A stretch of 64,000 nt of DNA from a bacterium (GTDB lineage: Bacteria > Eisenbacteria > RBG-16-71-46 > CAIMUX01). Where the stretch lies: the NCBI GenBank assembly GCA_030431975.1, contig JAUIHP010000001.1, positions 331,597 to 395,596 on the forward strand. The letters run 5' to 3'. Each line of letters begins with the position of its first letter. Positions within the stretch are counted from its first letter, which is position 1. The notes under the pieces are model-generated. The model did not search any database and had not been told where the DNA came from. It saw only the letters and a list, made by a program, of their open reading frames with translations. Both the position numbers and the translations under genes were made by a program. Below are positions 4,002 through 54,786 of this stretch, one piece after another.

Positions 4002-4610
4002 CTACTCCTCGCCTCTAGCCTCGCCTTCGGCCAGTGGACGATCCCCGGAGAGCTCCCGCCGTAGCCACATCTTGGCCATCCACCACTCCCGCTGCACGGT
4101 CCGCCGCGACAGATCGAGGGCCACGGCGACTTCCTCCTCCGTCATTCCCCCGAAGAAACGGAGCTCCACGATGCGCGCCGTCCTCTCGTCCTTTTCGTTC
4201 AAACGAGTCAGCGCTTCGTCGAGCTCGAAGAGATCGAGACCGGACTCGGTGACCGCGTCGATCCGATCGTCAAGCGTGACGCGCTCTTGGTCACCACCCC
4301 GCTTCAGGGCATTGCGCTCCCGCGCATAGTCGACCAGGACCTGGCGCATGGCGCGCGCGGCGATGCCGAAGAAGTGAGCCCGGTGCTCCCATTGGCCCCC
4401 GCCCTTCGCGTCGACCAGTCTCAGGTAGACCTCGTGGACGAGCGCCGTGGGTTGGAGCGTGTGCCCGACCCGCTCCTTGCGGAGCATTTGGGCGGCCACG
4501 CGACGGAGCTCGGCGTGGACGATTTCGAAGACTCTCCCCACCGCGGCCGGGTCGGACTTCCCCTCAGAAACGGACTGCAACAGCACCGTGAGATCTTCGG
4601 ATTTCGCCAA
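4002..4610 (-). CDS. ECF-type RNA polymerase sigma factor (Sigma70_ECF / PF07638-like)
   Basis: N-terminal 'SEDLTVLLQSVSEGKSDPAAVGRVFEIVHAELRRVAAQML' and C-terminal 'VELRFFGGMTEEEVAVALDLSRRTVQREWWMAKMWLRREL' match this ECF family; TTG start at 4610 proposed (ORF extends to 4763 but N-terminus there is non-homologous). Confidence 0.7.
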   Translation of the reverse strand: MAKSEDLTVLLQSVSEGKSDPAAVGRVFEIVHAELRRVAAQMLRKERVGHTLQPTALVHEVYLRLVDAKGGGQWEHRAHFFGIAARAMRQVLVDYARERNALKRGGDQERVTLDDRIDAVTESGLDLFELDEALTRLNEKDERTARIVELRFFGGMTEEEVAVALDLSRRTVQREWWMAKMWLRRELSGDRPLAEGEARGEE

Positions 4611-4803
4611 TGCCTTATCCCCCAACGACCTAGGCCCCGACTGGATCGGCGCCGACACCCTCCACAATGGTACGGGGCCGGAACACACGAAAAAATCGAA
4701 ATTCCCGTGACGCTTTGCGAGGCCCCACTCCGCAGGACTGGTTGAGGGGCGAAAGCGCTCCACGACAGATCCAGAATCTCACTGCGGAACACAGGAGGGC
4801 ATC

Positions 4804-5531: not shown

Positions 5532-6560
5532 TTGTCACTCCTCACGCCGTCCGTCCCCACGCTCCTACTCGCCATCCTCACGCTCTTGTCGGTTCAGACC
5601 GGCTCGGCTTCAGACTCCGGGGGACACCTCGTCGATGTGATCGATCCGCGCGTCTGGTGTCTCCACGAAAGCGAGGCTGGCGAGCTCTGGTTCGGCACGA
5701 ACGGCGCCGGGGTCTTCCGTCGCACAGGCGACCGGCTAGTCCAGTACACGACGGAGCATGGCCTGACCGGCAATCAGGTTCGCCATCTTCTCAGCGACGG
5801 CGAAGGTGGCCTGCTCGTAACGGCCAACGGAGGAGTGTCACGCTTCCATGGAACGTCGTTCGTCCCGCTCGAAGTCGTGAAGCACAAGGGAACGAACGGG
5901 TGGCAACTGGATCCGGCGGACGTGTGGCTTGTCGCCGACGTGGGCGCGGGTTCCGTCTGCCGCTTCGACGGGCAGACTCTGCACCAACTCGAACTTCCGC
6001 CAAGCCGAGCCGGTGGCCCGAAGAAGAAGGATTCCGACCCCGCGTGGTATGACCCCGCCGGCGTGTACCAGGTGGTGAAGGATCTTCGTGATCATGTCTG
6101 GATCGGAACTGCGGGCGCCGGTCTGTGTCGCTACGACGGGAAGTCGATCGACTGGATGTACGAGAAGCGCCTGACGACAACTCCGAGCGGCGGGGAGTTT
6201 GGCATTCGCTCGATCTACCAGGACCGATCCGGGTACTACTGGATTTGCAACACTCGCCAAAAGTTCGACATCGCGGTCGAGGGTCGTGACGGGTTGCTGT
6301 CCTACACCACACTGCAAGGGCTACCTCAAACTGCCACCGATGACGACGCGAACTTCACCTACTTTCCGGCGATCGCGGAGGCCGGAGATGGAGCGCTTTG
6401 GCTGGCCTGCGGCTCGGACGGAGTCCTGCGCAACAACGGTGAATCCGTGACGCGATACTCTGTCGGAGACGGTGCCTACGTCTTGTCGATCCTCATCGAT
6501 CGTACCGACTCGGTTTGGGTCGGAACCCTGCCCCAGACGGTTTGTCGGACAGGTTTCTAA
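5532..6560 (+). CDS. secreted beta-propeller protein (two-component regulator propeller / Reg_prop-like repeats)
   Basis: TTG start with signal peptide 'MSLLTPSVPTLLLAILTLLSVQTGSA'; repeated 'G..G(A/L)..(F/Y)' motifs such as 'LWFGTNGAGVFRRTG', 'VWIGTAGAGLCRYDG', 'LWLACGSDGVLR'. Confidence 0.5.
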   Translation: MSLLTPSVPTLLLAILTLLSVQTGSASDSGGHLVDVIDPRVWCLHESEAGELWFGTNGAGVFRRTGDRLVQYTTEHGLTGNQVRHLLSDGEGGLLVTANGGVSRFHGTSFVPLEVVKHKGTNGWQLDPADVWLVADVGAGSVCRFDGQTLHQLELPPSRAGGPKKKDSDPAWYDPAGVYQVVKDLRDHVWIGTAGAGLCRYDGKSIDWMYEKRLTTTPSGGEFGIRSIYQDRSGYYWICNTRQKFDIAVEGRDGLLSYTTLQGLPQTATDDDANFTYFPAIAEAGDGALWLACGSDGVLRNNGESVTRYSVGDGAYVLSILIDRTDSVWVGTLPQTVCRTGF

Positions 6561-6648: not shown

Positions 6649-7530
6649 ATGAAGAAAATGCTTCTGGCGGGCTTGGGAGCGTTGATCTCAGTTGCTCCCG
6701 GAGCCATTGCCGGTCCGAACAACGGTATCCTGGCGTTGATCCAAGCAGAGGGTGTGGTCTACACCACCGACATTGACAACTACTGTGGTGCGAGTGCCAT
6801 CCCACCGTGCGAAGAAGCGGTCTCGTCCTACGGCGGTACCGACATCGTCGTGCTGAACACGGTCGCCTACTTCGTGGGTTCACCGAGACTCGCCGGTGTC
6901 ATCTTTGGGATCGAGTACCCAGAGACTGATTTCTTTCTCGCAGACTTCGGCCCCTGCGGCGACTTCGAGCTGTTTACCAGTGACTGGCCAGCGTCAGGCG
7001 AGGGTACTGCGATCACGTTTGGGGCTGCCCAGACCACACTCGCAACCCACCTCTACTGGTTCGCGGGCTACAACTACTACGGAAACGCCGTCAGCTTCGA
7101 TTTGACTCCACACCCGACTGGCGGCGCGGTCTTCGCGGACGACGACGTTCCCTCGAACCTCGATGAGGTCGTGGCACTCGGCAGCTTCGGCTTTGGCGGA
7201 CTACCCGGCAACGTGCCCTGCCTCGTCGAAGACGTCGTCGGAGCCTGCTGTGATGACCGCTGCGGAGGCTGTGTCGTCGTGACCGAAGAAGAGTGCGGCG
7301 CTGGGTCGAGCTACCTCGGCGACGACACCCTCTGTGATCCCAACCCGTGCGCGTTTGAGTTCGGAGCTTGCTGTTTCGATGACGGCCAGTGCGCAGAGCT
7401 CATCCCTTGCGAATGCGAAGACGCGGGAGGTGTCTTCCAGGGAGATGGGGTTCTTTGCGAAGACGCGGACTGCATGGTCGTCCCGACCATCGAGGCGAGT
7501 TGGGGACAGCTGAAGAGCGTCTACCGCTAG
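6649..7530 (+). CDS. secreted cysteine-rich repeat protein ending in SWGQLKSVYR
   Basis: SD AAGGAG 6638-6643, ATG 6649, signal 'MKKMLLAGLGALISVAPGAIAG'; three Cys-rich repeats 'GACCDDRCGGC...CDPNPC...GACCFDDGQC...C.C'; terminal motif TIEASWGQLKSVYR*. Confidence 0.6.
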   Translation: MKKMLLAGLGALISVAPGAIAGPNNGILALIQAEGVVYTTDIDNYCGASAIPPCEEAVSSYGGTDIVVLNTVAYFVGSPRLAGVIFGIEYPETDFFLADFGPCGDFELFTSDWPASGEGTAITFGAAQTTLATHLYWFAGYNYYGNAVSFDLTPHPTGGAVFADDDVPSNLDEVVALGSFGFGGLPGNVPCLVEDVVGACCDDRCGGCVVVTEEECGAGSSYLGDDTLCDPNPCAFEFGACCFDDGQCAELIPCECEDAGGVFQGDGVLCEDADCMVVPTIEASWGQLKSVYR

Positions 7531-7624
7531 TTCTGAACCTTCGGTAGAGAGAATCAGAGCGAGGTGTCGAACCGGCGCCTCGCTCTTCTTGTCTTGGGAC
7601 TCTTGGACGAGGCGAACAGCAACG

Positions 7625-8197
7625 ATGGGCTCTATTGTCGGGCGTCTAACTCCGATCCTTCTCATTCTCGTCGCCGAGACAGCCCTTGCGTCCTGGATCC
7701 GAACGAACCAGTTTCAAGTCGATCCGTCGGAAGCCGTTGTCGACTCCCTGCCACCCGCGGCCCCTATCCTCGGTGTCCGAGGGGTCGTCCCCGGCAGGCC
7801 GCGAAAACCCGGCGAGTCAGCCGGGTATCCCTACTGTGACCCCAGTGCTCCGTACCACTCTGGGCGTATCCGGCTTGAAGTCATACCACCGGAAGACGAT
7901 CGCACTCCGGATCTCAAGCTCGGATACATCTTCGATCTGGTCGCAGGCGAGATCCCGGACGGCCTGGAGTTTCCAACAGATCCGCAACGATCGTCGTGGA
8001 CGAAATGGCCGGTCATTGCCTCCGATGAACCGCTCTTCGTCGCACCGCTCAATCTCGTTTGGCTCGGCGGGGAGACGTGGCCGGCATTCAGCTGCAGCTT
8101 GCGCATCGCCGCCATCGATCTGGGAGGGAACATCGGTCCGTTCTCCAACACGGTGCTCGTCGAGTATCGTGACGACGACAGCGCGACGAGCAGGTGA
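7625..8197 (+). CDS. hypothetical secreted protein
   Basis: ATG 7625 'MGSIVGRLTPILLILVAETALA' signal-like; no recognisable domain. Confidence 0.4.
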   Translation: MGSIVGRLTPILLILVAETALASWIRTNQFQVDPSEAVVDSLPPAAPILGVRGVVPGRPRKPGESAGYPYCDPSAPYHSGRIRLEVIPPEDDRTPDLKLGYIFDLVAGEIPDGLEFPTDPQRSSWTKWPVIASDEPLFVAPLNLVWLGGETWPAFSCSLRIAAIDLGGNIGPFSNTVLVEYRDDDSATSR

Positions 8198-12742: not shown

Positions 12743-15700
12743 ATGCCGAAGACCGAATCCAAGCTACAACGGCAGTTCGACGACCCGGGGGTTCGCCAAC
12801 GGGGTCATCGGTATTTCTGCGAAGGGCGCGTCCGTCTCAAGGGATTCGATGACGACAGCCTGAACGCGGAAGTCCGCGGGACGCGCACGTATCGAACCCG
12901 GCTCACCCAAGGCAGACGAGGACTCCGCCTTCAGTGCGACTGCCCACACGCGGCCGGGGGCGCAGCCTGCAAGCATCTGTGGGCGACGCTGCTCGAAGTG
13001 CACTCCGATCCTTCGGCCACGGCCTGGCTGGAGGGCATCGTTTCCGTGCCGGATCAGCGATTGCTCGATCGCGCGACGGGTTGGGACGAAGTTGCCGACG
13101 ACGTGGACGATTCCTACGAGGATGAACGCGGCTCGGGCTTCGGCTCAGGCTCAGGCTCAGGTTCAGGCTTCGGCTCGGGCTCGGGCTCGGGCTCAGGCTC
13201 CAACTCCGCCGGATCCCTCTTTGGATCGGGTTCATCGACTTCGGGAGTCGCACCGTGGTCGCCGCGGACTCCTCGGGCGCATACACCCGACTGGGAGATC
13301 TGGCTTCGCTCACTGGACGGACAGCTCCCGCCTACTTCTACGCACGGAACACACCCGTCCACATCTTCGCCTCGGCCCAAGTCAGCCCCGCAACCCATCG
13401 AACTCGGATTCTTCGTCTCGGAGTTCTACGGCGACTCCCTGGTCGGCCTTGAGGTTCGGTCACGCCAACAACGAAAGGACGGCACCTGGGGCGTCTTCCG
13501 CGAAGGCAACCTGAAACGCGAAGACATGGCTCGCATCGAGCCTCCCGACAATGCAGCGGTCCTGGACCGACTGTTGGGTGCACAGGACTGGAGACTTCCG
13601 CAGACCCGAACGCTGAGTAGCCGCTTCGGCCTGGAGCCTGAACTCTTCGCCCAGCTGGGCCCGGAACTCGCCGCCCGGGGATCGCTGTTCGACCCGGAAG
13701 GTGAGCCGTTGCAATGGGACGATGGAGGAACCTGGGTCGTCACCGCGGTCGTCCGGCCCGGCAACGCACCCGGCAAAGACCCCGGCAGCGAGCCGCGCAA
13801 AGGGTCCGGAAGCCGTCCCGGCAACGGGGCGGGCAGCGCCCCTTCCGTCTATGAAACACGTATCCTCGTTCGTCGCGGCGAAGAGTCCGACGACGTTGAG
13901 ATGTTCACTCCACTGACCCACCCGTTTTCGATTCGTGACGGCAAAGTCGTACGGGTCGAAGGTCCGCTCTTCTGGTCGCCGTTGGGTTCTCGCGTCTTGC
14001 GCGTTCCGGCCGAAGATGTCGACACGTTTCTGGAATCCCTCGTCTCCAAAGTCGGTGGCCCGCGTCTCGACGCGCCCGCGGAACTGGAGTGGACGTCGAT
14101 CTCTCCCGAGTTCCAACCGCGACTGGTCCTGATGGGACAGGACGAGGTGCCGCCTCCGTTTCGAAACTCGCAGTCCGACACCGATGACTCCTGGGTCGAC
14201 TACGCCAAGCCGCAAATGTCGGACGACGAACTGGCTGCGCGAGTGGAGTTCGACTACTCGGGCGTGGCCGTTGACTGGCGTTCGAGGACATCGCGTCTGG
14301 TCGACTCGAATCGGCGCACGGTCATCGACCGAAGTCTTGAAGATGAAGCGAGCCGCTTGGCCGAGCTGCGTGGGCACGGCGCGAAAGCCAAGCGATGGGC
14401 TCACGGGCCGTTCTTCACGGTGAAGACGTCCCGACTCCCGGACCTTGTGCAGATGCTGACTCCACTTGGCTGGGACATCCGGGCCAAAGACCAACCGATG
14501 CGCTCACCCGGCTCGATCAAGACGAGCCTTCGCTCCGAGATCGACTGGTTCGAACTGGACGTGCGAGTCGAGTACGCGCAAGGCGTGTTTGCCGACGTCT
14601 CCGACCTGCTGCGAGCCGCCAAGCGCGGCGAACGCACCGTTCAGTTGGGGGACGGAAGCATTGGCCTTCTTCCCGAAGAATGGATGGAGCGAAATGGCTT
14701 CCTGCTCGAATCCGGACAGAAGAAGGAAGAGAGCCTTCGCTTTGAACCGTCGCAGGCCGCGCTTCTGGCCGTGCTTCTGGAACAGCAAACCAACGTCGAC
14801 GTCGACGCCACCTTTGATCGCATCCGCTCAGAGATCGAGTCCTTCCACCGGGTCGAACCGGAGGAAGCCCGAGCCTCGTTCAAAGGCAAGCTTCGCTCAT
14901 ACCAGAGAGAAGCTCTCGGGTGGTTCGGCTTTCTCCGTCGGTTCGACTTCGGCGGATGTCTGGCTGACGACATGGGGCTGGGCAAGACGGTCATGGTCTT
15001 GGCGCTCCTCGATTCCCGCCGGGGAGTCCGCGCGCAGGGCGGCAAAGAGAAACGACCCTCGTTGGTCGTCGTCCCCCGCTCGCTCGTCTTCAACTGGATG
15101 CTGGAGGCGACGAAGTTCGCCCCGAAGTTGCAGGTCTTCGATTTCAGCGGACCCAGCCGCGGCACTCTGGCCAGCGCGATGTCGGCGGACGTGATCATTA
15201 CGACCTACGGCGTACTTCGCCGTGATGTTCTCGACTTCAAGGAGGCCGAGTTCGACTACGCCATCCTCGACGAGTCCCAAGCCATCAAGAACTCCAATAC
15301 CGCCACGGCGCGCGCGGCACGGCTGCTTCAGGCCCGACACCGCCTCGCCATGAGCGGCACACCGATCGAAAACCACCTCGGTGAACTCTGGAGCCTGTTT
15401 GCGTTTCTGAATCCTGGACTTCTCGGCGGCGCCGGAGTCTTCAAACGGTTCTCCAGTCGGACCTCGTTTGCCGATACGGAACAACAGGACGGCACCGTCG
15501 ACATGGTGGCCCGTGCAGTGCGGCCCTTTCTGTTGCGACGCACGAAAGAGCAGGTCGCGACCGAGCTGCCTCCCAAAGAAGAGCAGACGGTGTACTGCGA
15601 CTTGTCGCGAGCCCAGCGCCGATTCTATGACGGGTTGCGTGATCACTACCGGCGTTCGCTTCTGGAGAATCGAAAGAAAACAAAGGAGTCGACGCGACAG

Positions 15701-16297
15701 AATCAGATCGAAGTCCTGGAGGCGCTCCTTCGTCTGCGACAAGCCGCCTGCCATCCCGGGCTTGTCGACTCCGATAAGGCGCCGCAAGAGTCGGCCAAGC
15801 TCGACCTTCTGATGGACCGCCTGCTCGAACTACACTCTGAAGGCCACAAGGCGCTGGTCTTCTCCCAGTTCACCTCCCTGCTCGCTTTGGCAAAGGACCG
15901 TCTGAACGCTCACAACATTCCGTTCGAGTACCTCGACGGTCAGACCCGAAACCGCGCGGAGAAGGTGAAGAGCTTTCAGGAGAGCGACGACATTCGCGTG
16001 TTCCTGATCAGCCTCAAAGCCGGGGGAACCGGACTCAACCTGACGACCGCGAGCTACGTCTTTCTGCTGGATCCGTGGTGGAATCCCGCCGCCGAAGCAC
16101 AGGCCATCGACCGGGCGCACCGCATCGGACAGCAGCGGCCTGTGTTGGCCTGTCGTCTCGTCGCTCGCGATACCGTCGAAGAGCGGATCCTCGAACTGCA
16201 GGAGCGAAAGAGAGATCTCGCAGACTCCATCGTTCGCGCGGAGACTTCGCTTCTTCGTGGGCTCAATGGCGAGGACCTCGAGCTTTTGCTATCGTAG
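12743..16297 (+). CDS. SWIM zinc-finger / SNF2-family helicase (SNF2_N + helicase C)
   Basis: SWIM 'LQCDCPHAAGGAACKHLWATL'; SNF2 motif I 'LADDMGLGKT', 'DESQAIKN', 'LSGTPIENHL', helicase C 'KALVFSQFTS...DPWWNPAAEAQAIDRAHRIGQ'. Confidence 0.85.
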   Translation: MPKTESKLQRQFDDPGVRQRGHRYFCEGRVRLKGFDDDSLNAEVRGTRTYRTRLTQGRRGLRLQCDCPHAAGGAACKHLWATLLEVHSDPSATAWLEGIVSVPDQRLLDRATGWDEVADDVDDSYEDERGSGFGSGSGSGSGFGSGSGSGSGSNSAGSLFGSGSSTSGVAPWSPRTPRAHTPDWEIWLRSLDGQLPPTSTHGTHPSTSSPRPKSAPQPIELGFFVSEFYGDSLVGLEVRSRQQRKDGTWGVFREGNLKREDMARIEPPDNAAVLDRLLGAQDWRLPQTRTLSSRFGLEPELFAQLGPELAARGSLFDPEGEPLQWDDGGTWVVTAVVRPGNAPGKDPGSEPRKGSGSRPGNGAGSAPSVYETRILVRRGEESDDVEMFTPLTHPFSIRDGKVVRVEGPLFWSPLGSRVLRVPAEDVDTFLESLVSKVGGPRLDAPAELEWTSISPEFQPRLVLMGQDEVPPPFRNSQSDTDDSWVDYAKPQMSDDELAARVEFDYSGVAVDWRSRTSRLVDSNRRTVIDRSLEDEASRLAELRGHGAKAKRWAHGPFFTVKTSRLPDLVQMLTPLGWDIRAKDQPMRSPGSIKTSLRSEIDWFELDVRVEYAQGVFADVSDLLRAAKRGERTVQLGDGSIGLLPEEWMERNGFLLESGQKKEESLRFEPSQAALLAVLLEQQTNVDVDATFDRIRSEIESFHRVEPEEARASFKGKLRSYQREALGWFGFLRRFDFGGCLADDMGLGKTVMVLALLDSRRGVRAQGGKEKRPSLVVVPRSLVFNWMLEATKFAPKLQVFDFSGPSRGTLASAMSADVIITTYGVLRRDVLDFKEAEFDYAILDESQAIKNSNTATARAARLLQARHRLAMSGTPIENHLGELWSLFAFLNPGLLGGAGVFKRFSSRTSFADTEQQDGTVDMVARAVRPFLLRRTKEQVATELPPKEEQTVYCDLSRAQRRFYDGLRDHYRRSLLENRKKTKESTRQNQIEVLEALLRLRQAACHPGLVDSDKAPQESAKLDLLMDRLLELHSEGHKALVFSQFTSLLALAKDRLNAHNIPFEYLDGQTRNRAEKVKSFQESDDIRVFLISLKAGGTGLNLTTASYVFLLDPWWNPAAEAQAIDRAHRIGQQRPVLACRLVARDTVEERILELQERKRDLADSIVRAETSLLRGLNGEDLELLLS
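13129..13200 (+). repeat. hexanucleotide tandem repeat (GGCTCR)n encoding (GS/GF)n linker inside SNF2 gene
   Basis: 'ggctcgggcttcggctcaggctcaggctcaggttcaggcttcggctcgggctcgggctcgggctcaggctcc' -> GSGFGSGSGSGSGFGSGSGSGSGS. Confidence 0.9.
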
Positions 16298-16531: not shown

Positions 16532-18298
16532 ATGACGTTGGCGTTCCGTGCCACCCTGTCCTTCCCGAAGGTGGCGTTCTCTTCCCGAGTTCTCTCGGCA
16601 ACTTCGTTCCGTGTCACGATTACATCTCTCATCACGGCGACGCTTTCTTCAGCGGCGCTGAACATCGCGCAAGCGCAAAGGGCCGAGCCTGAAGTTCTCT
16701 CCGGAGAATCGATCGGCGGGCAAAGTTTCGCTTTGCAGGACGGCTGGCCGCAGGTGATCGGCGCCGGACGCACTCTCGCAAACGGGGTCGCGTTCTCGGA
16801 TCTGGACGGGGACGGCCGGCTCGAAGTCATCGCCGGTTCGACCAACGGAATACTCGCCGTCTGGGATGCTTCCGGTGAAATGCTGCCCGGCTGGCCACGG
16901 ACACTCGTAGCATCCATTCGCAGCAAACCCGCCATCGTCGATCTCGATGGAGACGGAAGGCAGGAGATCGTCGCCGCGTTCTCGACATTGATCAGCGGGG
17001 GCGTTGCGGCCTTTCACCTCGACGGAAGCCGCGTCGAGGGTTGGCCCCGCACGACCAGTGTCATCGACGGATTCGTTTCGCCAACTGCGCGCGACCTCGA
17101 CCTCGACGGCTCTCCGGAGGTCATCATGCCGGCGAGAGAGAAGCTCTATGTTTGGGACCGGAGCGGAAACCTTCTGCCCGGCTTTCCTGTTGATCCGCCC
17201 GGGGGAACATTGGGAACGGTCGCGGTCGGGGACATCGTCGGCGGACCCGAACCCGAGATCGTTCAGGTCTCGACCGACAAGTTCAACCTCGCCTACGTCT
17301 TCCAGAACGACGGAACGGTCGCTGACGGGTGGCCTGCCTTCGTCGCCGAACGACACGCCTTCGCTGCGCCGGTGATCGCTGATCTGGATGCGGACGGCCG
17401 CAACGAGATTCTAATCAGCTCATACGATCCGGTTGGCAGCCGGGGAATCCTCAGCGGCTTCGAACACACAGGCGAACCGATTCAGGGCTATCCCATCGAG
17501 GTGAACGCTCTCCAGTCCTACGCCACACCCGTCGTGGGTGACATGAACAACGACGGCCATCTCGAAATCCTGCTTCCCATCAAGTACTCGTTCTTCTTCT
17601 CGTTTTGGGCCTTCAGCGCCGACGGTCAGCCCCTTCCCGGCTGGCCGGTCTCCGCGCAGTCCAACCTGGAGGGGTCGGCCATCCTCATCAACCTGGATGA
17701 TGACGACGACCTCGAGACTCTCGTCGCCGACAACTTCACGCCCGGTGACATCTTCGCCTACAACCTGGACGGCACCGAGGTACCCGGCTTTCCCCTGGCC
17801 AAATTCGGCGCCTGCGGCCCCTCCAGCGGAGCGTCCGGCGATATCGACGGTGATGGAGACATCGAGTACGGCATCAACACCGACGGCACCATCGCCATCT
17901 GGGATCTGGATGCGCGCGCCCTTCCGTCGGGTTGGCCAACTGCGTTCCATGACAACTGGAACACCAACGATGCGTCCTTCGTCATCCCCGGAGAGACGGC
18001 ATCGGTTCCCGGAGATGTCGTCGCAGATCGATCTCGGGTTCGCATCCAGTGGGCGCAACCGACAAGTAGAAACTCCGTCACAGTATCGTGGACCGGAACG
18101 AACCGACTTCAGTCGCTGCTCGTCGTCGACGCACGCGGACGGTCCCTAGGCCGTGTGGTTCCGTCGGTGTCCGAGCGAGAGCGCGGTGAGTCGGTATGGA
18201 AGTCGCGGTACGAAACGGTTCCGTCGGGTGTTTACTTCGTCGTTCCGTTCGACAAGGAAGGGGCGGGAACGGCAGAGCGGGTCGTGTTCGTGCGGTGA
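16532..18298 (+). CDS. secreted FG-GAP/VCBS-repeat protein with FlgD-Ig-like (T9SS-type) C-terminal domain
   Basis: Repeated 'DLDGDGR.E' Ca-binding FG-GAP motifs (x6+); C-terminus '...LLVVDARGRSLGRVV...SGVYFVVPFD...ERVVFVR' resembles FlgD_ig/Por_Secre_tail. Confidence 0.7.
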   Translation: MTLAFRATLSFPKVAFSSRVLSATSFRVTITSLITATLSSAALNIAQAQRAEPEVLSGESIGGQSFALQDGWPQVIGAGRTLANGVAFSDLDGDGRLEVIAGSTNGILAVWDASGEMLPGWPRTLVASIRSKPAIVDLDGDGRQEIVAAFSTLISGGVAAFHLDGSRVEGWPRTTSVIDGFVSPTARDLDLDGSPEVIMPAREKLYVWDRSGNLLPGFPVDPPGGTLGTVAVGDIVGGPEPEIVQVSTDKFNLAYVFQNDGTVADGWPAFVAERHAFAAPVIADLDADGRNEILISSYDPVGSRGILSGFEHTGEPIQGYPIEVNALQSYATPVVGDMNNDGHLEILLPIKYSFFFSFWAFSADGQPLPGWPVSAQSNLEGSAILINLDDDDDLETLVADNFTPGDIFAYNLDGTEVPGFPLAKFGACGPSSGASGDIDGDGDIEYGINTDGTIAIWDLDARALPSGWPTAFHDNWNTNDASFVIPGETASVPGDVVADRSRVRIQWAQPTSRNSVTVSWTGTNRLQSLLVVDARGRSLGRVVPSVSERERGESVWKSRYETVPSGVYFVVPFDKEGAGTAERVVFVR

Positions 18299-18735: not shown

Positions 18736-18987
18736 GGAAACGCCTCCCGACAGAAACAACTCCCGATAGAAACAACTCCCGCGAGACCGAGCCGCCGCGA
18801 TCTGCAACCTACACCCGAGACTGAGCGTGCCCCACACGTGTGTTACTATAACAGACAGGGAGAAGACGGCGGCTGGATCTCCAGATCGGCTTCGCTGCCA
18901 GAACGCCTCTGATTGGGCATCCGTTTGCCAAACCCCGCGCCTTGTTCTGCTATCAGGAGTTTGCGTCCTTGGGAGGAACTTCGCGCC

Positions 18988-19398
18988 ATGACCGCACATA
19001 CTCGTATTCAGACCATTGTTGGCCATACACTCGCTTCTGTCTGCCTGCTCACCCTGAGCAGCGCCTGCTCAAAAGAAGAGCCCTCGGCACCGTCGGGCGA
19101 CCGAAACCTGCCGCCGGTAGTTGAAAGCATCCCGGACTTCTCGCTGTCGGTCGGCGACACCCTTTCATTCCTGACCGTGGCTTCGGATCCGGAAGGAAAG
19201 CCGCTCACGTATCGTCTGGTCGTCGCCCATAGCCCCGGCTCCGGATCGGCTCGCGCTTCGGTGGATCCGGATTCCGGGGAGTTCATTTTCGTCGCTCAGA
19301 AGACGGATAGGCCGTTCCGTTGGGTCGGCATCTTTGTTGCGGATCCCGAAGGAGAGGAGAGTTATGCGGACTTCTATGTCGCCGTGGACCATCCGTAG
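18988..19398 (+). CDS. lipoprotein with cadherin-like/putative Ig domain
   Basis: 'MTAHTRIQTIVGHTLASVCLLTLSSACS' lipobox; 'PPVVESIPDFSLSVGDTLSFLTVASDPEGKPLTYRLV' Ig-like pattern. Confidence 0.5.
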   Translation: MTAHTRIQTIVGHTLASVCLLTLSSACSKEEPSAPSGDRNLPPVVESIPDFSLSVGDTLSFLTVASDPEGKPLTYRLVVAHSPGSGSARASVDPDSGEFIFVAQKTDRPFRWVGIFVADPEGEESYADFYVAVDHP

Positions 19399-19399
19399 G

Positions 19400-20002
19400 A
19401 TGGAGGCTCGCGGTATCCGTGTCGTGCTTCTTGGCCTTCTCGCCGCTTTCGTAGTGACCTCGGCGCCGCTTGCGCAGGGCCGGGTTACAGTCGTCGGCGA
19501 GATCATAAACTCCGACATCCCGGGAAGCGGCTGCACCACTCTGATGCGCAGTTACTCCGGACCCTCCCCGACCGTGCTCGGCATCCACGGAGAGGTCCCG
19601 GAACACCTCCTCACCACCTGGGTCCGCGTCACTGGATTGTTGCGCGAGGCGGATACCTGCTCACCGTGGGCGGAGGCCAGTCTTGACGACGTCACGGTGA
19701 CCGAGGCTCCGTCTATGGACTTCGGGGTCGGGAAGCTCTGGGTGGATATGTACGACGGTTGCCACTCTTGGAGGTCGGAGCGATTCGGCGGGTACGTGAT
19801 CTACAGTGATCAGATTCCGAGTTCGTTGGACGAAGGGGATCAGTACCGGGTGGTGGGTCGGATCCTTTCGGTTTCGGGGCTTTGCGGCGCCAATACTCTG
19901 GGGCTTCTGGCCGACTCGATCGAGTTGGTCACATCACCGACTTTGGAAACGTCCTGGGGCGAGATCAAACGGCGCTACCGGGGAGTCGACGAGCCTCACT
20001 AA
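19400..20002 (+). CDS. secreted hypothetical protein ending in SWGEIKRRYR motif
   Basis: 'MEARGIRVVLLGLLAAFVVTSAPLAQG' signal; 4 Cys; C-terminal 'TLETSWGEIKRRYRGVDEPH'. Confidence 0.5.
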   Translation: MEARGIRVVLLGLLAAFVVTSAPLAQGRVTVVGEIINSDIPGSGCTTLMRSYSGPSPTVLGIHGEVPEHLLTTWVRVTGLLREADTCSPWAEASLDDVTVTEAPSMDFGVGKLWVDMYDGCHSWRSERFGGYVIYSDQIPSSLDEGDQYRVVGRILSVSGLCGANTLGLLADSIELVTSPTLETSWGEIKRRYRGVDEPH

Positions 20003-48327: not shown

Positions 48328-49602
48328 TTAGCGAATTCGAACGACTCTTGCTGCTACGGACTCCCGATCGGTGCGGAACTCGACCCAATAGGTTCCCGCC
48401 GGGACTTCTCGTCCCTGTGAGTCGCGGCCATCCCACAGGATCTCGTGTGCACCTGCTCGCAACACTTCGTTTTCGAACAGGGTCTGCACCGTCCGCCCGT
48501 TGACGTCGACGACCAGCGCAGTTGCGGACTTCGCGTCGGCCGCGAGCTGGAACGTCAATCCGGATTCACCGCGGAACGGGTTCGGGTAAGCCATGATCGT
48601 TTGTGCATCCGGCTGGTAGCCGGATCCAATGCTGCCTGGACCTCCGGGGTTTCCTGGACCGCCAGGACTTCCTGGGCCTCCAGGGCTTCCTGGGCCTCCC
48701 GGATCTCCGATACCTCCCGGGCTTCCCGGATCCACATCGGTCGTGAATTCCGGACTTCGACCGACCCCGATGGAGGCGATGGGCGCGAAGTTGTCTTCGC
48801 GCAGCAGAACCAGGTCCCACAGACCATGCTCCTCCTCGCTCAGCCATTCGACCTCGGCGGAGATTGTCTGGAAGTCACCCTCCGCGATTTCTGCTTCCCC
48901 AAAGATCCATTCGTCGGCAGGCATTCCGTTGATCGAGAGGACTTGCTGATCCGTGTCCCAACCTTCGGGGCCCCAGATCTGCCAGAGATAGACGAACTGC
49001 GTCGGTTCGTTACCGAGGTTCCAGATGTCCGCCTCGAATGTGACCGGATCGAGCGGATGAAGGAAACGATGGGACTCCTCGAAGTACCAATCCAAGCAGG
49101 ACAGGGGCTGGTCGCGTAGGGTGCCGCCCAACCACGAGGAGCCCGTGCCTTCGATGACTGCCCAGTAGCAGACCGACTCGTTGAAATCGAGTTCTTCCGG
49201 ACGTTGCATGAGTACACGAACGACCTCGCATTCCCCCGGCCACAGCGAGAAGGAAGCAGGGCTCAGGAACTCATGGTCGGGGAGCACGCCCTCCGTGCAG
49301 TCGTAGAAGATTTCACCCGGCTCCAGTCGAACGTCGTAGAAGACCTGTTCGAAGCCCCAATTGCAGACCGTGATCTCGACGACGACCTCGGAGCTTCCGC
49401 AAAAGTTGCTCGTCGTCGGGACATGCAGACCGCCACTGGTCGTAGCCTGCACGTCCTCGCCGAAAAGGAGACCGGCAAAGGCGACGGCAATGGCAACGGC
49501 AATGGCAAAGATGCATCGGGTCGGGACACGTCCGAGTTTCCGCCCGGTTCGGGTTACCAACGGCAGCCTCTGTACCCAAGCTCTCATCGTCCAATCTGTC
49601 AT
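48328..49602 (-). CDS. secreted protein with FlgD-Ig-like / T9SS-type C-terminal domain
   Basis: GGAGAGGAG SD before ATG 49602; signal 'IFAIAVAIAVAFAGLLFG'; 'PGSPGGIGDPGGPGSPGGPGSPGGPGNPGGPG' linker; CTD 'AYPNPFRGESGLTFQLA...VVDVNGRTVQTLF...AGAHEILWDGRDSQGREVPAGTYWVEFRTD'. Confidence 0.65.
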   Translation of the reverse strand: MTDWTMRAWVQRLPLVTRTGRKLGRVPTRCIFAIAVAIAVAFAGLLFGEDVQATTSGGLHVPTTSNFCGSSEVVVEITVCNWGFEQVFYDVRLEPGEIFYDCTEGVLPDHEFLSPASFSLWPGECEVVRVLMQRPEELDFNESVCYWAVIEGTGSSWLGGTLRDQPLSCLDWYFEESHRFLHPLDPVTFEADIWNLGNEPTQFVYLWQIWGPEGWDTDQQVLSINGMPADEWIFGEAEIAEGDFQTISAEVEWLSEEEHGLWDLVLLREDNFAPIASIGVGRSPEFTTDVDPGSPGGIGDPGGPGSPGGPGSPGGPGNPGGPGSIGSGYQPDAQTIMAYPNPFRGESGLTFQLAADAKSATALVVDVNGRTVQTLFENEVLRAGAHEILWDGRDSQGREVPAGTYWVEFRTDRESVAARVVRIR

Positions 49603-52660: not shown

Positions 52661-53006
52661 GCGACGCCATGTGGGAACGTCGGACAGGGATTCGTTCGCG
52701 ACTCCCGGCGTCGGGGCTCCGATGTTCACGACTCCGACAACCTTCCTTGCATTTTGGTCGGGGCTTGGTCGTCGGGCGGATTGGCCTGTCTCGGAAACGT
52801 AGGTCTTCGATCTGCGAATCCGCTGCAGTTTCTTCGTAACCGGTGAGCTCGACCCTACATCGAACAAATGTTCGCTTCGGCGCATCCGCACTCTGGTAAA
52901 CAAGTCATAGGCGCCCCTATTGAGGTGTGCCGCCGTCACCGGGGCCGGAAAGACGGCAGCTTGAAGCCGGACTGATTCCGCGAGGTTTTAACAACGGAAG
53001 GACCCT

Positions 53007-54786
53007 GTGATCGACGCCACAACTCATAGCAATCCGACCGTTGGCAGATGCGAGTCAGGTCAGGGCCAGGTCGCACCACCGAAAGAGAGACTGACGTCCC
53101 GATGCACAATCGAGGCACGTAGAGTCTCGCTTCGGCAACTGAACGACGGCCACTTGCTCCATCAAATGGGGCGCCTGCGAGAACGGGAACGACGAACGCT
53201 CCTCGACATGTTGCTCCATCTCAACGAGGTGTACCGAAGGAAGCTTCACCTTCGCGAGGGTTACGGTTCCATGTTCCGGTACTGCACGGACGCTCTCGAG
53301 TATTCGAAGTCCGCCGCATGCCGGCGGATCCAGGCTGCGCGCTGCCTTGGGCGGTTTCCGACGCTGGACCGCTGGATCGAGAAGGGTGAGATCCGAGTCA
53401 GTCACCTGTGTTTGATCGAACCGGTTCTAAGCCCGAAGAATCTCGACTCGATGATCCATGCGATCAGGGGCAGGACCCAGGCCGAGGGTGGAGCAAATCG
53501 TCGCCCGACACCGGCCGCCCGTTGCCGGTCGAGAGAAGGTGCAACCTGTGAGCATCAGGACAACTTCCGTCCGACCGGGCGGCCCAGACACCGACCGTTC
53601 AACCGAAGTGGCTCAGTCCGGCATCGGACCCAGAATTGCTCGGAACACCGGAGCCAATGCCAATCTCGGTATCACGGCTCGCGCCGACGCCGGTTCGGCA
53701 ACTACCGCCCCGGCGACCGCAGTTCCGAAACCGTTCGCGTCGGACAATGCTGCGTTCGGACACAATGCTGCATCGGACCCTACTACCTCGGCCAACACCA
53801 TTTCGAACGCCGCCAGCTCAACCATTGGTGTCGCCACATCCGACACCGTTGGCCCCTCGGCCGAGCACATCGCATTGGACTCGTCGGACTCCTCGGACTC
53901 GTCGAACTCATCGAACTCGTCGGACTCGTCGGATTCTTCGAGCTCTTCGGGCTCCTCGGGCTCGTTGGGATTTCGCGTCTCATTGGTGTTGTCGCCCAAG
54001 CAGATGGAGAAACTGGAGCGAGTCGTTCAATTGGTTGCGCCCGGGCACCGCTGCCAAGGCACGATGGCCCACGCGCTCGAGAAGGCGATGGACCTGTTTA
54101 TCAAGCAGAACTGTCCGCTGGAAAGGGATGCTCGCCGGGTCGCGAGAGCCACTCAGCAGACCTCGCTGCGCGGCCAAGCGCCTGATCACAACATCGCCGC
54201 AGCGCCGGCCGAGACCGCCCCGGCAACACGCTCGCAGGCAGAGGCCGAACGACGGCACGGCAAGAGCGAGGTCGACACGAAACAAGTCGACACCAAGACG
54301 GTCGACTCCGAACGAATCGACGGTGAGGCGCCCGATACGAAGTCGTTCGACGGTGAGGCGGTCGACGATGAAGCGAGTAAGTCTGGGCGGACGGACATTG
54401 AAGCGGTCGACTCTGGACGGAATGACGGTGAAGCGGGCAACTCTGAACGGAAGGCCCCTGAAGCGGTCGACTCTGAACAGAACGACGCGGTTGGTTGCAC
54501 ACAACGGGCGCGTGACTCTCTGGATCCACTGCCGACCAAGCTACGCGATCGAGTCCTTGCTCGGGACGGTGGGCGCTGCACTTTCGTCGGCCCCGGAGGC
54601 CACCAATGTGGTGCGACACGACGGCTGGAAGTGGACCACATCATCCCACGCGGCAAGGGAGGGGAAACAACCGCAGAGAATCTCAGAACTCTGTGCCGCG
54701 CACACAACCAATTCGAGGCTGACAAAGCCTACGGCCGGAAGTTCATGGAACAACACCGCCGCCACACCGAGCGGCGGCAAGAATGA
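53007..54786 (+). pseudogene. frameshifted HNH endonuclease of the DUF222/'13E12-repeat' type
   Basis: Frame 0 (53007-~53470) has a DUF222-like N-terminus ('GYGSMFRYCTDALEYSKSAACRRIQAARCLGRFPTLDRWIEKGEIRVSHLCLIEP'); frame +1 (53458-54786) carries a Ser/Asp-rich linker and C-terminal HNH ('CTFVGPGGHQCGATRRLEVDHIIPRGKGGETTAENLRTLCRAHN'); the frame 0 continuation after ~53470 is nonsense. Confidence 0.5.

Follow-up and report, generated by a model that had tools for sequence, protein, structure and literature searches.

Known C-terminal tags compared with the tail

All small sorting domains known to date at protein C-termini are tripartite and consist of a motif, a transmembrane helix and a cluster of Arg residues (10.1101/2023.06.07.544157). 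The LPXTG/sortase, PEP-CTERM/exosortase, GlyGly-CTERM/rhombosortase and MYXO-CTERM/myxosortase systems share with the tail analyzed here a short C-terminal motif that is found on many unrelated signal-peptide proteins of a restricted lineage, and in the MYXO-CTERM class a Cys lies directly upstream of the motif, as is often the case for our tag. On the other hand, the tripartite domains have a transmembrane segment past the motif, which the tag lacks (only 8 residues lie beyond its Trp), and they end in an Arg cluster, whereas the tag has a single Arg and short unconstrained extensions.

The T9SS CTDs (type A, PF18962/TIGR04183, with a FlgD_ig-like variant; type B, CHU_C) resemble the tag in being C-terminal on Sec-exported proteins of the FCB group. 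In both cases, the cargo is mostly non-catalytic or adhesin-like, many paralogous carriers occur per genome, and the chain ends K-x-hydrophobic...-R-COOH (I-K-[AS]-L-Y-R in the tag and T-R-K-[VM]-V-L-L-R in the CTD of the same genome). However, the T9SS CTD is a β-sandwich of 70-100 aa, and the tag comprises about 17 residues with one short predicted helix; the tag, unlike the CTD, can be internal or repeated; and no HMM similarity was detected between them (PF18962, TIGR04183 and PF13860 against both window proteins and ten tails, E≤10).

The cellulosome dockerin resembles the tag in being short, helical and C-terminal and in occurring on a variety of secreted proteins, and the likeness to the dockerin-cohesin pair extends to the commonest tag-carrier family, which has a cohesin-like fold. 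Dockerins, however, are built from duplicated Ca-binding F-hand segments over about 70 aa, which the tag of about 17 aa does not have; no Pfam Dockerin_1 match was found on the tails, and the tail logo contains no D-x-N-x-D-G loop. The MTS of MinD and FtsA and the anchor of PBP5/6 are basic, aromatic C-terminal helices of about 10 residues that depend on avidity, and in these respects they resemble the tag. They act at the inner membrane, on its cytoplasmic or periplasmic face, and each belongs to one protein family, whereas the tag occurs in at least 55 families and has an invariant W-G-x-x-K. Identity of the tag with the β-signal of OMPs was rejected, since its terminal residue is Arg and not aromatic and its carriers are soluble domains. 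Literature searches on the lineage, the motif and sorting signals turned up no mention of it. We regard the tail as a kind of C-terminal cargo tag with an architecture unlike that of any described class, and not as a classical cleaved tripartite sorting signal.

Two tag-bearing proteins of the window

The window, that is, the whole 64-kb stretch of DNA analyzed here, encodes two tagged proteins. The gene at 6649..7530 (+ strand) encodes a secreted protein of 293 aa composed of a signal peptide, a cohesin-like β-sandwich, two 6-Cys repeats and the C-terminal tag. Its Sec-type signal peptide, MKKMLLAGLGALISVAPGAIA (6649..6711, +), was read from the sequence and is followed by GPNN, cleavage being placed before a conserved GPNxGG. 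Residues A19, A21, G22 and N24 of this region are nearly invariant in the family alignment (A2), and residues 1-19 have a pLDDT below 50 in the AlphaFold2 model. The N-terminal domain (about residues 22-195; 6712..7233, +) is modelled as a nine-stranded jelly-roll β-sandwich of cohesin topology; the similarity is one of fold only, at 13% identity. No Pfam family, Cohesin included, matched the protein at E≤1.

The domain is followed by two copies of a 6-Cys repeat of about 37 aa (GACC..C..C..GG.Y.GD..C....C; residues 198-234 and 239-275; 7240..7473, +). The Cys residues at 200, 201, 208, 216, 229, 234, 241, 242, 248, 256, 270 and 275 are invariant or nearly so, and the number of repeats varies from one to six copies across the homologues (alignment A2). 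The repeats have no Pfam match. The tag, VVPTIEASWGQLKSVYR, occupies 7477..7527 (+), with the stop codon at 7528-7530, so that the ORF ends ...CMVVPTIEASWGQLKSVYR. AlphaFold2 places a helix at residues 285-292 of the tag, with a pLDDT of about 77-85 compared to 90 for the whole model. A strong, terminator-like hairpin (7556..7586, +), with a 14-bp stem followed by a T-rich tail, lies 26 nt past the stop codon.

The second gene (19400..20002, +; start at 19364 and 212 aa in the public gene calls) encodes a secreted orphan that contains 4 Cys and also bears the tag. Its N-terminus, ...RVVLLGLLAAFVVTSAPLAQG followed by RV, is of the Sec type, and its C-terminus reads ...SPTLETSWGEIKRRYRGVDEPH. 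The tag, TSPTLETSWGEIKRRYR (19931..19981, +), is followed by six extra residues, GVDEPH (19982-19999), and then by the stop codon. The only database match of this protein was itself (P0052), and no Pfam or NCBIfam family scored above noise. Since it is an orphan without homologues, the tail here sits on a lineage-specific protein, and its conservation there cannot be assessed.

The two proteins have in common the motif P-T-x-E-x-S-W-G-x-[IL]-K-x-x-Y-R, at or near the C-terminus, and in neither is there anything hydrophobic or any transmembrane segment beyond it. In a six-frame translation of the window, the regular expression WG.[ILVM]K..[YFW] hit two sites only, both at the ends of long ORFs. 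Similarly, a 45-nt degenerate back-translated pattern hit the two sites alone, and it gave no match in any of 100 dinucleotide-preserving shuffles of the window. The first-pass annotation, which was made from sequence alone, had proposed a shared C-terminal motif on two secreted proteins of the window, with no TM helix downstream. Both claims held, as shown by the two ORF ends, the regular expression and the Sec-type N-termini, although the motif as first given was too short. Its third claim for the 6649 protein, that of three Cys-rich repeats, failed, as only two 'GACC...C...C...C..PC' repeats are present.

Conservation and spread of the tail

A database search with the 6649 protein returned 50 relatives at E≤1e-36; a 51st match (E=7e-4) was not credible as a relative and was left out. 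All relatives with an organism name are Candidatus Eisenbacteria. Of these, 48 reach the C-terminus. The strict regular expression fits the very end of 44 of them, including homologues with as little as 37% identity, and in each of the remaining four a single position departs from it. The W, G, K and R of the tail are invariant in the family alignment.

To define the spread beyond this family, one genome per GTDB species (596 Gb) was scanned with the pattern P-[TVAI]-x-[DE]-x-[ST]-W-G-x-[ILV]-K-x-x-[YF]-R, without requiring a stop codon. At least 115 loci matched, against about 13 chance matches estimated for 596 Gb under uniform base composition, and these loci hold at least 138 tail-ending ORFs. 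A stop codon directly followed 98 of the 128 matches; in 16 of 128 one residue intervened, and in 123 of 128 the stop came within five residues. Because the stop codon was absent from the search pattern, the terminal position is an independent result and not a condition of the search. The named records belong mainly to Eisenbacteria, then to Krumholzibacteria, Latescibacteria, Fibrobacter/Fibrobacteraceae and one Gemmatimonadota; by these records, the tag is restricted to a group of FCB-related candidate phyla. Two named records in the scan are labelled Verrucomicrobia. A single match in Pseudomonadota was a spurious 16-codon ORF and was rejected.

A 17-position HMM of the tail gave 70 matches at E≤0.001 among 1.84 billion representative proteins, and 64 of the 69 examined lie at the extreme C-terminus. 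A 40-aa tail profile searched against a 5.8-billion-protein database gave six candidates and was uninformative. Third codon positions within the tag vary freely (1.79 bits at the Gly GGN codon and 1.63 at Arg), which implies that selection acts on the peptide and not on a DNA element. The 762 kb of sequence flanking the tagged genes contains 35 additional tagged ORFs, and the 64-kb window contains 2. This suggests that a genome holds tens of carriers, a rough estimate that is biased by tandem paralogues.

Two outcomes had been named in advance as refuting the tag. One, that the motif would be confined to the two window proteins and absent from orthologues, did not occur, given the homologues and ORF ends counted above. 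The other, that the tail would prove to be the start of a described CTD family, did not occur either: for the two full window proteins and ten diverse tails (E≤10), no Pfam or NCBIfam model lay over the tail. In addition, the tail profile matched no PDB chain at E≤10.

Anatomy of the tag

The consensus of 138 tails is x-[VTS]-P-[VT]-E-[ED]-x-[ST]-W-G-x-[IV]-K-[AS]-[LMI]-[YF]-R-COOH, in which W, G and K are invariant and which is preceded by a Cys at -12 to -9. The tail is 15-17 residues long and has the general form P-V-E-E-S-S-W-G-x-I-K-x-L-Y-R followed by the stop. It ends exactly at the R in 104 of 138 cases, and the remainder carry short unconstrained extensions, such as the GVDEPH of the window. 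In 64% of the 138 tails a Cys is found at positions -14 to -9, and in none is there a later Cys. This puts the start of the tag at the end of a domain closed by a disulfide, the latter being inferred. The linker is acidic (net charge -1.4) and the W..R segment is basic (net charge +2.1).

AlphaFold2 predicts a helix over W-G-x-x-K-x-x-Y in two unrelated families, represented by the 6649 protein and by an NTF2-like carrier, P0060, in which the tag helix spans residues 230-235 with a pLDDT of about 91. Alternatively, the high pLDDT of the P0060 tail may reflect packing against the domain that carries it. The mean helical hydrophobic moment of the tag was 0.44, compared to 0.36 +/- 0.17 for shuffles, and 31% of the shuffles reached the observed mean. 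A textbook amphipathic, membrane-inserting helix is thus unsupported, as the moment is not above that of shuffles.

The tag is not always single or terminal. Tail-HMM matches revealed two to four tandem copies in P0062, P0088, P0090 and P0099 and a domain-tag-domain-tag layout in P0058, P0061, P0069 and P0089, and in P0060, P0077 and P0084 one tag directly follows the signal peptide and another is terminal. Such internal, N-terminal or repeated tags are not what a cleaved signal confined to the C-terminus would lead one to expect, and they fit a binding or anchoring module better. Several tag proteins are lipoproteins with acidic residues past the Cys.

Carriers of the tag

After removal of the tails, 107 carriers fell into 55 BLAST clusters. 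A crude heuristic, applied alike to both sets, detected signal-peptide-like N-termini in 92 of 100 carriers and in 57 of 138 flanking genes (odds ratio 16, p=1e-16). The enrichment among signal-peptide proteins that the first-pass annotation had suggested looking for was thus seen relative to flanking genes. Pfam recognized only a minority of the carriers (Beta_helix 9, CBM_20 5, Chlam_PMP 5, X25 3, LTD 3, CHRD 2 and MAM 2), and NCBIfam recognized POMP repeats and one 'choice-of-anchor P' protein. Judging from this content, the recognized carriers are binding or adhesin-type modules rather than enzymes, with the reservation that most carriers are unannotated. The folds of the two modelled carriers, cohesin-like in the 6649 protein and NTF2-like in P0060, are unrelated. 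All carriers come from MAGs or metagenomes, and there are therefore no localization or proteomic data.

Relation to the FlgD-Ig/T9SS-type CTD

Two proteins of the window had been reported, in the same annotation, to carry FlgD-Ig-like CTDs, which would make two coexisting classes of cargo tag. For the protein at 48328..49602 this held clearly, with the gene lying on the minus strand: its FlgD-Ig/T9SS type-A-like CTD (48331..48588, -) matched Pfam FlgD_ig (E=2.6e-10), Por_Secre_tail (E=0.004) and a local CTD HMM (E=1e-19). For the FG-GAP protein at 16532..18298, which ends ...SGVYFVVPFDKEGAGTAERVVFVR, it held only in part; the CTD (18101..18295, +) is weak, with a local CTD HMM match of E=6e-5 and no Pfam FlgD_ig match at E≤1.

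The coexistence of the two classes held across the 115 loci, where the tail is carried by 138 ORFs, the FlgD-Ig/T9SS-like CTD by 44 and both by none. Tag and CTD are thus mutually exclusive in these loci, and they share passengers. With tails and CTDs removed, 27 tail-bearing ORFs have homologues that end in a CTD (E<1e-8); for example, the cohesin-like domain is shared at 48% identity over 167 aa. The mutual exclusivity and the shared passengers together imply that tag and CTD behave as alternative C-terminal fates of overlapping passenger repertoires. The median ORF is 680 aa for CTD proteins versus 278 aa for tagged ones. Among the 138 immediate neighbors of tagged genes, the commonest Pfam families were FlgD_ig (9), Por_Secre_tail (7) and CHU_C (3). 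CTD cargo and a weak PorV/PorP-like barrel are present in the same genomes as the tag, and dependence on SprA/Sov, PorV or PorU could not be assessed.

Search for partner machinery

No machinery gene that recurs beside tagged genes was identified. An all-against-all BLAST of the 4077 ORFs of the 115 loci yielded no recurrent untagged neighbor; the apparent neighbor clusters were histidine kinases or antisense artefacts and were discarded. Pfam searches on the 138 immediate neighbors gave only T9SS-type cargo, ECF sigma, YceG and M20, with no recurrent receptor, peptidase, barrel or transporter. Similarly, no receptor, protease or transporter gene recurred in four 13-21 kb neighborhoods of tagged genes, no sortase-like or CPBP gene recurred near tagged genes, and the P0002 and P0008 neighborhoods shared no synteny with the window. 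In one locus, L120, a PorV/PorP-like barrel and an Rce1-like CPBP protease flank an array of tagged genes. This pair was rejected as machinery and taken as a coincidence, given that phmmer found the barrel in two other loci only, at a distance of about 5 kb from the tag, and that further CPBP genes were all but absent from the loci.

The co-occurring protease or transporter gene that the first-pass annotation had proposed to look for was thus not found as a recurrent gene beside tagged genes. Its reading of the tail as an uncharacterized tag is supported; the 'sorting or processing' part remains an inference, with no machinery found and with cleavage not demonstrable from sequence.

Proposed role of the tag and alternative explanations

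The results presented above establish a sharply conserved peptide under selection at the protein level, overwhelmingly C-terminal, occasionally repeated and carried by at least 55 unrelated signal-peptide families. Our preferred explanation is that these roughly 17 residues form a self-contained, portable module that serves as an undescribed envelope localization or anchoring tag of Eisenbacteria and related candidate phyla of the FCB group. Both the receptor and the function are inferred, and we hold this reading to be as likely to be right as wrong. According to this model, Sec would export the carrier, which would lose its signal peptide; the presence of signal peptides is shown here, and the export is inferred. 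The passenger would then fold in the periplasm, often closed by a disulfide directly before the tag, where the Cys enrichment is shown and the disulfide inferred. The acidic, extended linker P-V-E-E-S-S would present the short basic helix W-G-x-I-K-x-L-Y-R, a helix that rests on the AlphaFold2 predictions for two unrelated families. A conserved envelope receptor, which is inferred, would bind this helix non-covalently and hold or deliver the protein at the outer membrane or surface. This putative route may be an alternative to the T9SS-type CTD, which the same genomes put on larger proteins, and extra copies of the tag may raise avidity, as inferred from the multi-copy proteins.

Several observations run counter to this model. 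No receptor, protease or transporter gene recurs beside the tagged genes, and the strong preference for ending at the R is more readily explained by a terminal signal than by a binding module that can sit anywhere in the chain. The possible packing of the P0060 tail on its domain, the unremarkable hydrophobic moment and the metagenomic origin of all carriers, which leaves the model without localization or proteomic data, also count against it.

Among the alternatives, an outer-membrane translocation signal, read once by a translocon and possibly cleaved, remains possible; the tail would then be a peptide-sized T9SS input or the signal of an unknown exporter. It is supported by the extreme C-terminal position in more than 90% of cases, by the exclusion of the CTD despite shared passenger families, by T9SS-type cargo genes that often adjoin tagged genes, and by the K-x-hydrophobic...-R-COOH ending common to the tag and the CTD of the same genome. 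However, a terminal signal that is read only once does not readily account for the copies at internal, N-terminal or tandem positions, the tag has no HMM match to Por_Secre_tail or CHU_C, and no translocon gene is linked to tagged genes. Moreover, the T9SS signals studied so far need a folded β-sandwich of about 70-100 aa. A minimal single-helix docking peptide with a dockerin-like function appears unlikely; its partners would be cohesin-like modules, the N-terminal domain of the 6649 family among them, and multi-protein complexes would be assembled in this way at the surface. The carriers are mostly non-catalytic binding modules and multi-copy tags would suit binding to a scaffold, but the cohesin likeness is limited to fold, without a Pfam Cohesin match or binding data; Ca-binding F-hand repeats and a Dockerin match are lacking; and the presence of cohesin-like proteins in every tag-bearing lineage has not been established.

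It is also improbable that the tail acts as a non-specific, in-plane anchor to membrane or LPS, a short basic aromatic helix lying on anionic lipid in the manner of MinD/FtsA or PBP5 but outside the cytoplasm. The predicted helix, the net charge of +2.1 over W..R together with the W and Y, and the avidity that tandem copies would add are consistent with such an anchor. On the other hand, the hydrophobic moment does not exceed that of shuffles, the helix has only about 9 residues, and the invariant W-G-x-x-K with a conserved acidic linker on 55 unrelated families in several phyla points to a specific partner. Still less likely is a role in quality control or turnover, as a C-terminal degron or as a PDZ ligand of a periplasmic tail-specific protease, or one as a mere structural cap. 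The C-terminal position and an HtrA-type Trypsin+PDZ gene in one neighborhood, that of L120, would fit turnover, but a degron on 55 unrelated families, duplicated in tandem, is improbable; PDZ ligands usually end in a hydrophobic residue and not in Arg; and a structural cap cannot suit unrelated folds. Finally, only the shortness of the motif favors a chance resemblance or an artefact of DNA repeats or gene calling. This explanation is virtually ruled out by the lack of matches in the 100 window shuffles, by the excess of loci over the chance estimate, by the terminal position of 123 of 128 matches and by the free variation of synonymous sites.

A bolder reading is that the tag represents a cargo-tag system of peptide size, the third in the FCB superphylum, with a dedicated and as yet unidentified envelope receptor, translocon or scaffold. 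We lean slightly against it on present evidence. A minimal type IX input and a single-helix 'dockerin' for cohesin-like proteins that carry the tag are the candidates under this bolder reading. If it were true, each genome of Eisenbacteria, Krumholzibacteria, Latescibacteria and their relatives would have roughly tens of surface proteins organized by the system.

Implications

Each of the cargo tags LPXTG, PEP-CTERM, GlyGly-CTERM and the T9SS CTD led to a dedicated sorting machine. The present motif equals them in sharpness, with an invariant W-G-x-x-K on at least 55 unrelated families, without having their architecture. The phyla in which it is found have been seen only in metagenomes, and almost nothing is known about their cell surface. 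For these lineages, the motif gives a one-line rule that predicts some of the proteins that are exported or placed at the surface. The tag is also a concrete handle toward a partner protein through phylogenetic profiling, and possibly a very small portable targeting peptide.

Genomic surroundings of the two window genes

The surroundings of both tagged genes in the window look like ordinary chromosome. The neighbors include genes for an ECF sigma factor, a Reg_prop protein, an inositol monophosphatase, an aminotransferase, a PBP5-type carboxypeptidase, an SNF2 helicase and a KamA-like radical SAM protein, and, further, TonB, glycosyltransferases, ABC-2 permeases, a pullulanase, an OMP barrel, Mfd, GuaA and MgtE.

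The 6-Cys repeat and the genes around the two tagged proteins

The 6649 protein (window 6649..7530), which carries the C-terminal tag, contains a 6-Cys repeat of approximately 37 residues, GACCxxDGxCxxxxxxxCxxxGGxYxGDGxxCDPNPC, at residues 198-275 (window 7240-7473). Two copies are present in this window protein, the homologues have between one and six, and the repeat had no match in Pfam. BLAST clustering showed that the same repeat joins many other tagged proteins and CTD-bearing proteins. One UniRef homologue is named "SMB domain-containing".

The 6649 gene is followed, 26 nt after its end, by a strong terminator-like hairpin (7556-7586, + strand), with a 14-bp stem including 9 GC pairs and a T-rich tail. 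This hairpin overlaps the listed start of the ORF at 7589..8197, whose true start probably lies further downstream. Just upstream of the 6649 gene are an ECF sigma factor gene (4002-4763, - strand) and a gene for a secreted Reg_prop beta-propeller protein (5532-6560, + strand). ECF sigma factors also recur beside tagged genes elsewhere (3 of the 138 immediate neighbours profiled).

The other tagged gene of the window, at 19400..20002, is preceded by a putative lipoprotein gene (18913-19398, + strand), whose product contains LSSACSKEE and weakly resembles Big_9 (E=0.028). Since only 1 nt separates the end of this gene from the ATG of the 19400 gene, it is likely that the two form one operon. 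In the CTD-bearing protein 48328..49602 (- strand), the Gly/Pro-rich linker PGSPGGIGDPGGPGSPGGPGSPGGPGNPGGPGS (approximately 48589-48700) directly precedes the FlgD-Ig CTD.

Possible exceptions to the usual position and lineages of the tag

At five loci the reading frame runs on past a perfect tag for 14 to about 290 more codons, with no stop codon directly after it: L001 (+, ORF offset 5979), L010 (6085), L020 (6361), L083 (1609) and L111 (6407). Frameshifts, assembly errors, pseudogenes or fusions may account for these cases. Two tag-bearing contigs (L090 and L099) belong to MAGs that are labelled as Verrucomicrobiia/Verrucomicrobiota and so fall outside the FCB group; mis-binning is conceivable, as is a wider distribution of the tag. 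Tagged ORFs with signal peptides, three in all, also occur on two IMG/VR "viral" contigs (L121:4351-4394, - strand; L122:5678 and 6394, + strand), which could be prophage-adjacent or misclassified host DNA; one of the three ORFs resembles a metallophosphoesterase.

Possible mobile or defence genes in the window

An HNH-endonuclease-like gene (52992-54786, + strand) is apparently split into two overlapping frames, 52992-54185 and 53455-54786, and is homologous to an ORF in locus L119 adjoining the multi-copy tag gene P0090 (phmmer E=1e-16). Given this homology, the window gene might represent either a mobile HNH element or a copy with a frameshift. Genes for a protein that carries an RE_endonuc domain at its C-terminus (4-1923, + strand) and for a 1184-residue SNF2-family helicase (12743-16297, + strand) share one region of the window and are possibly defence or mobile-element genes.
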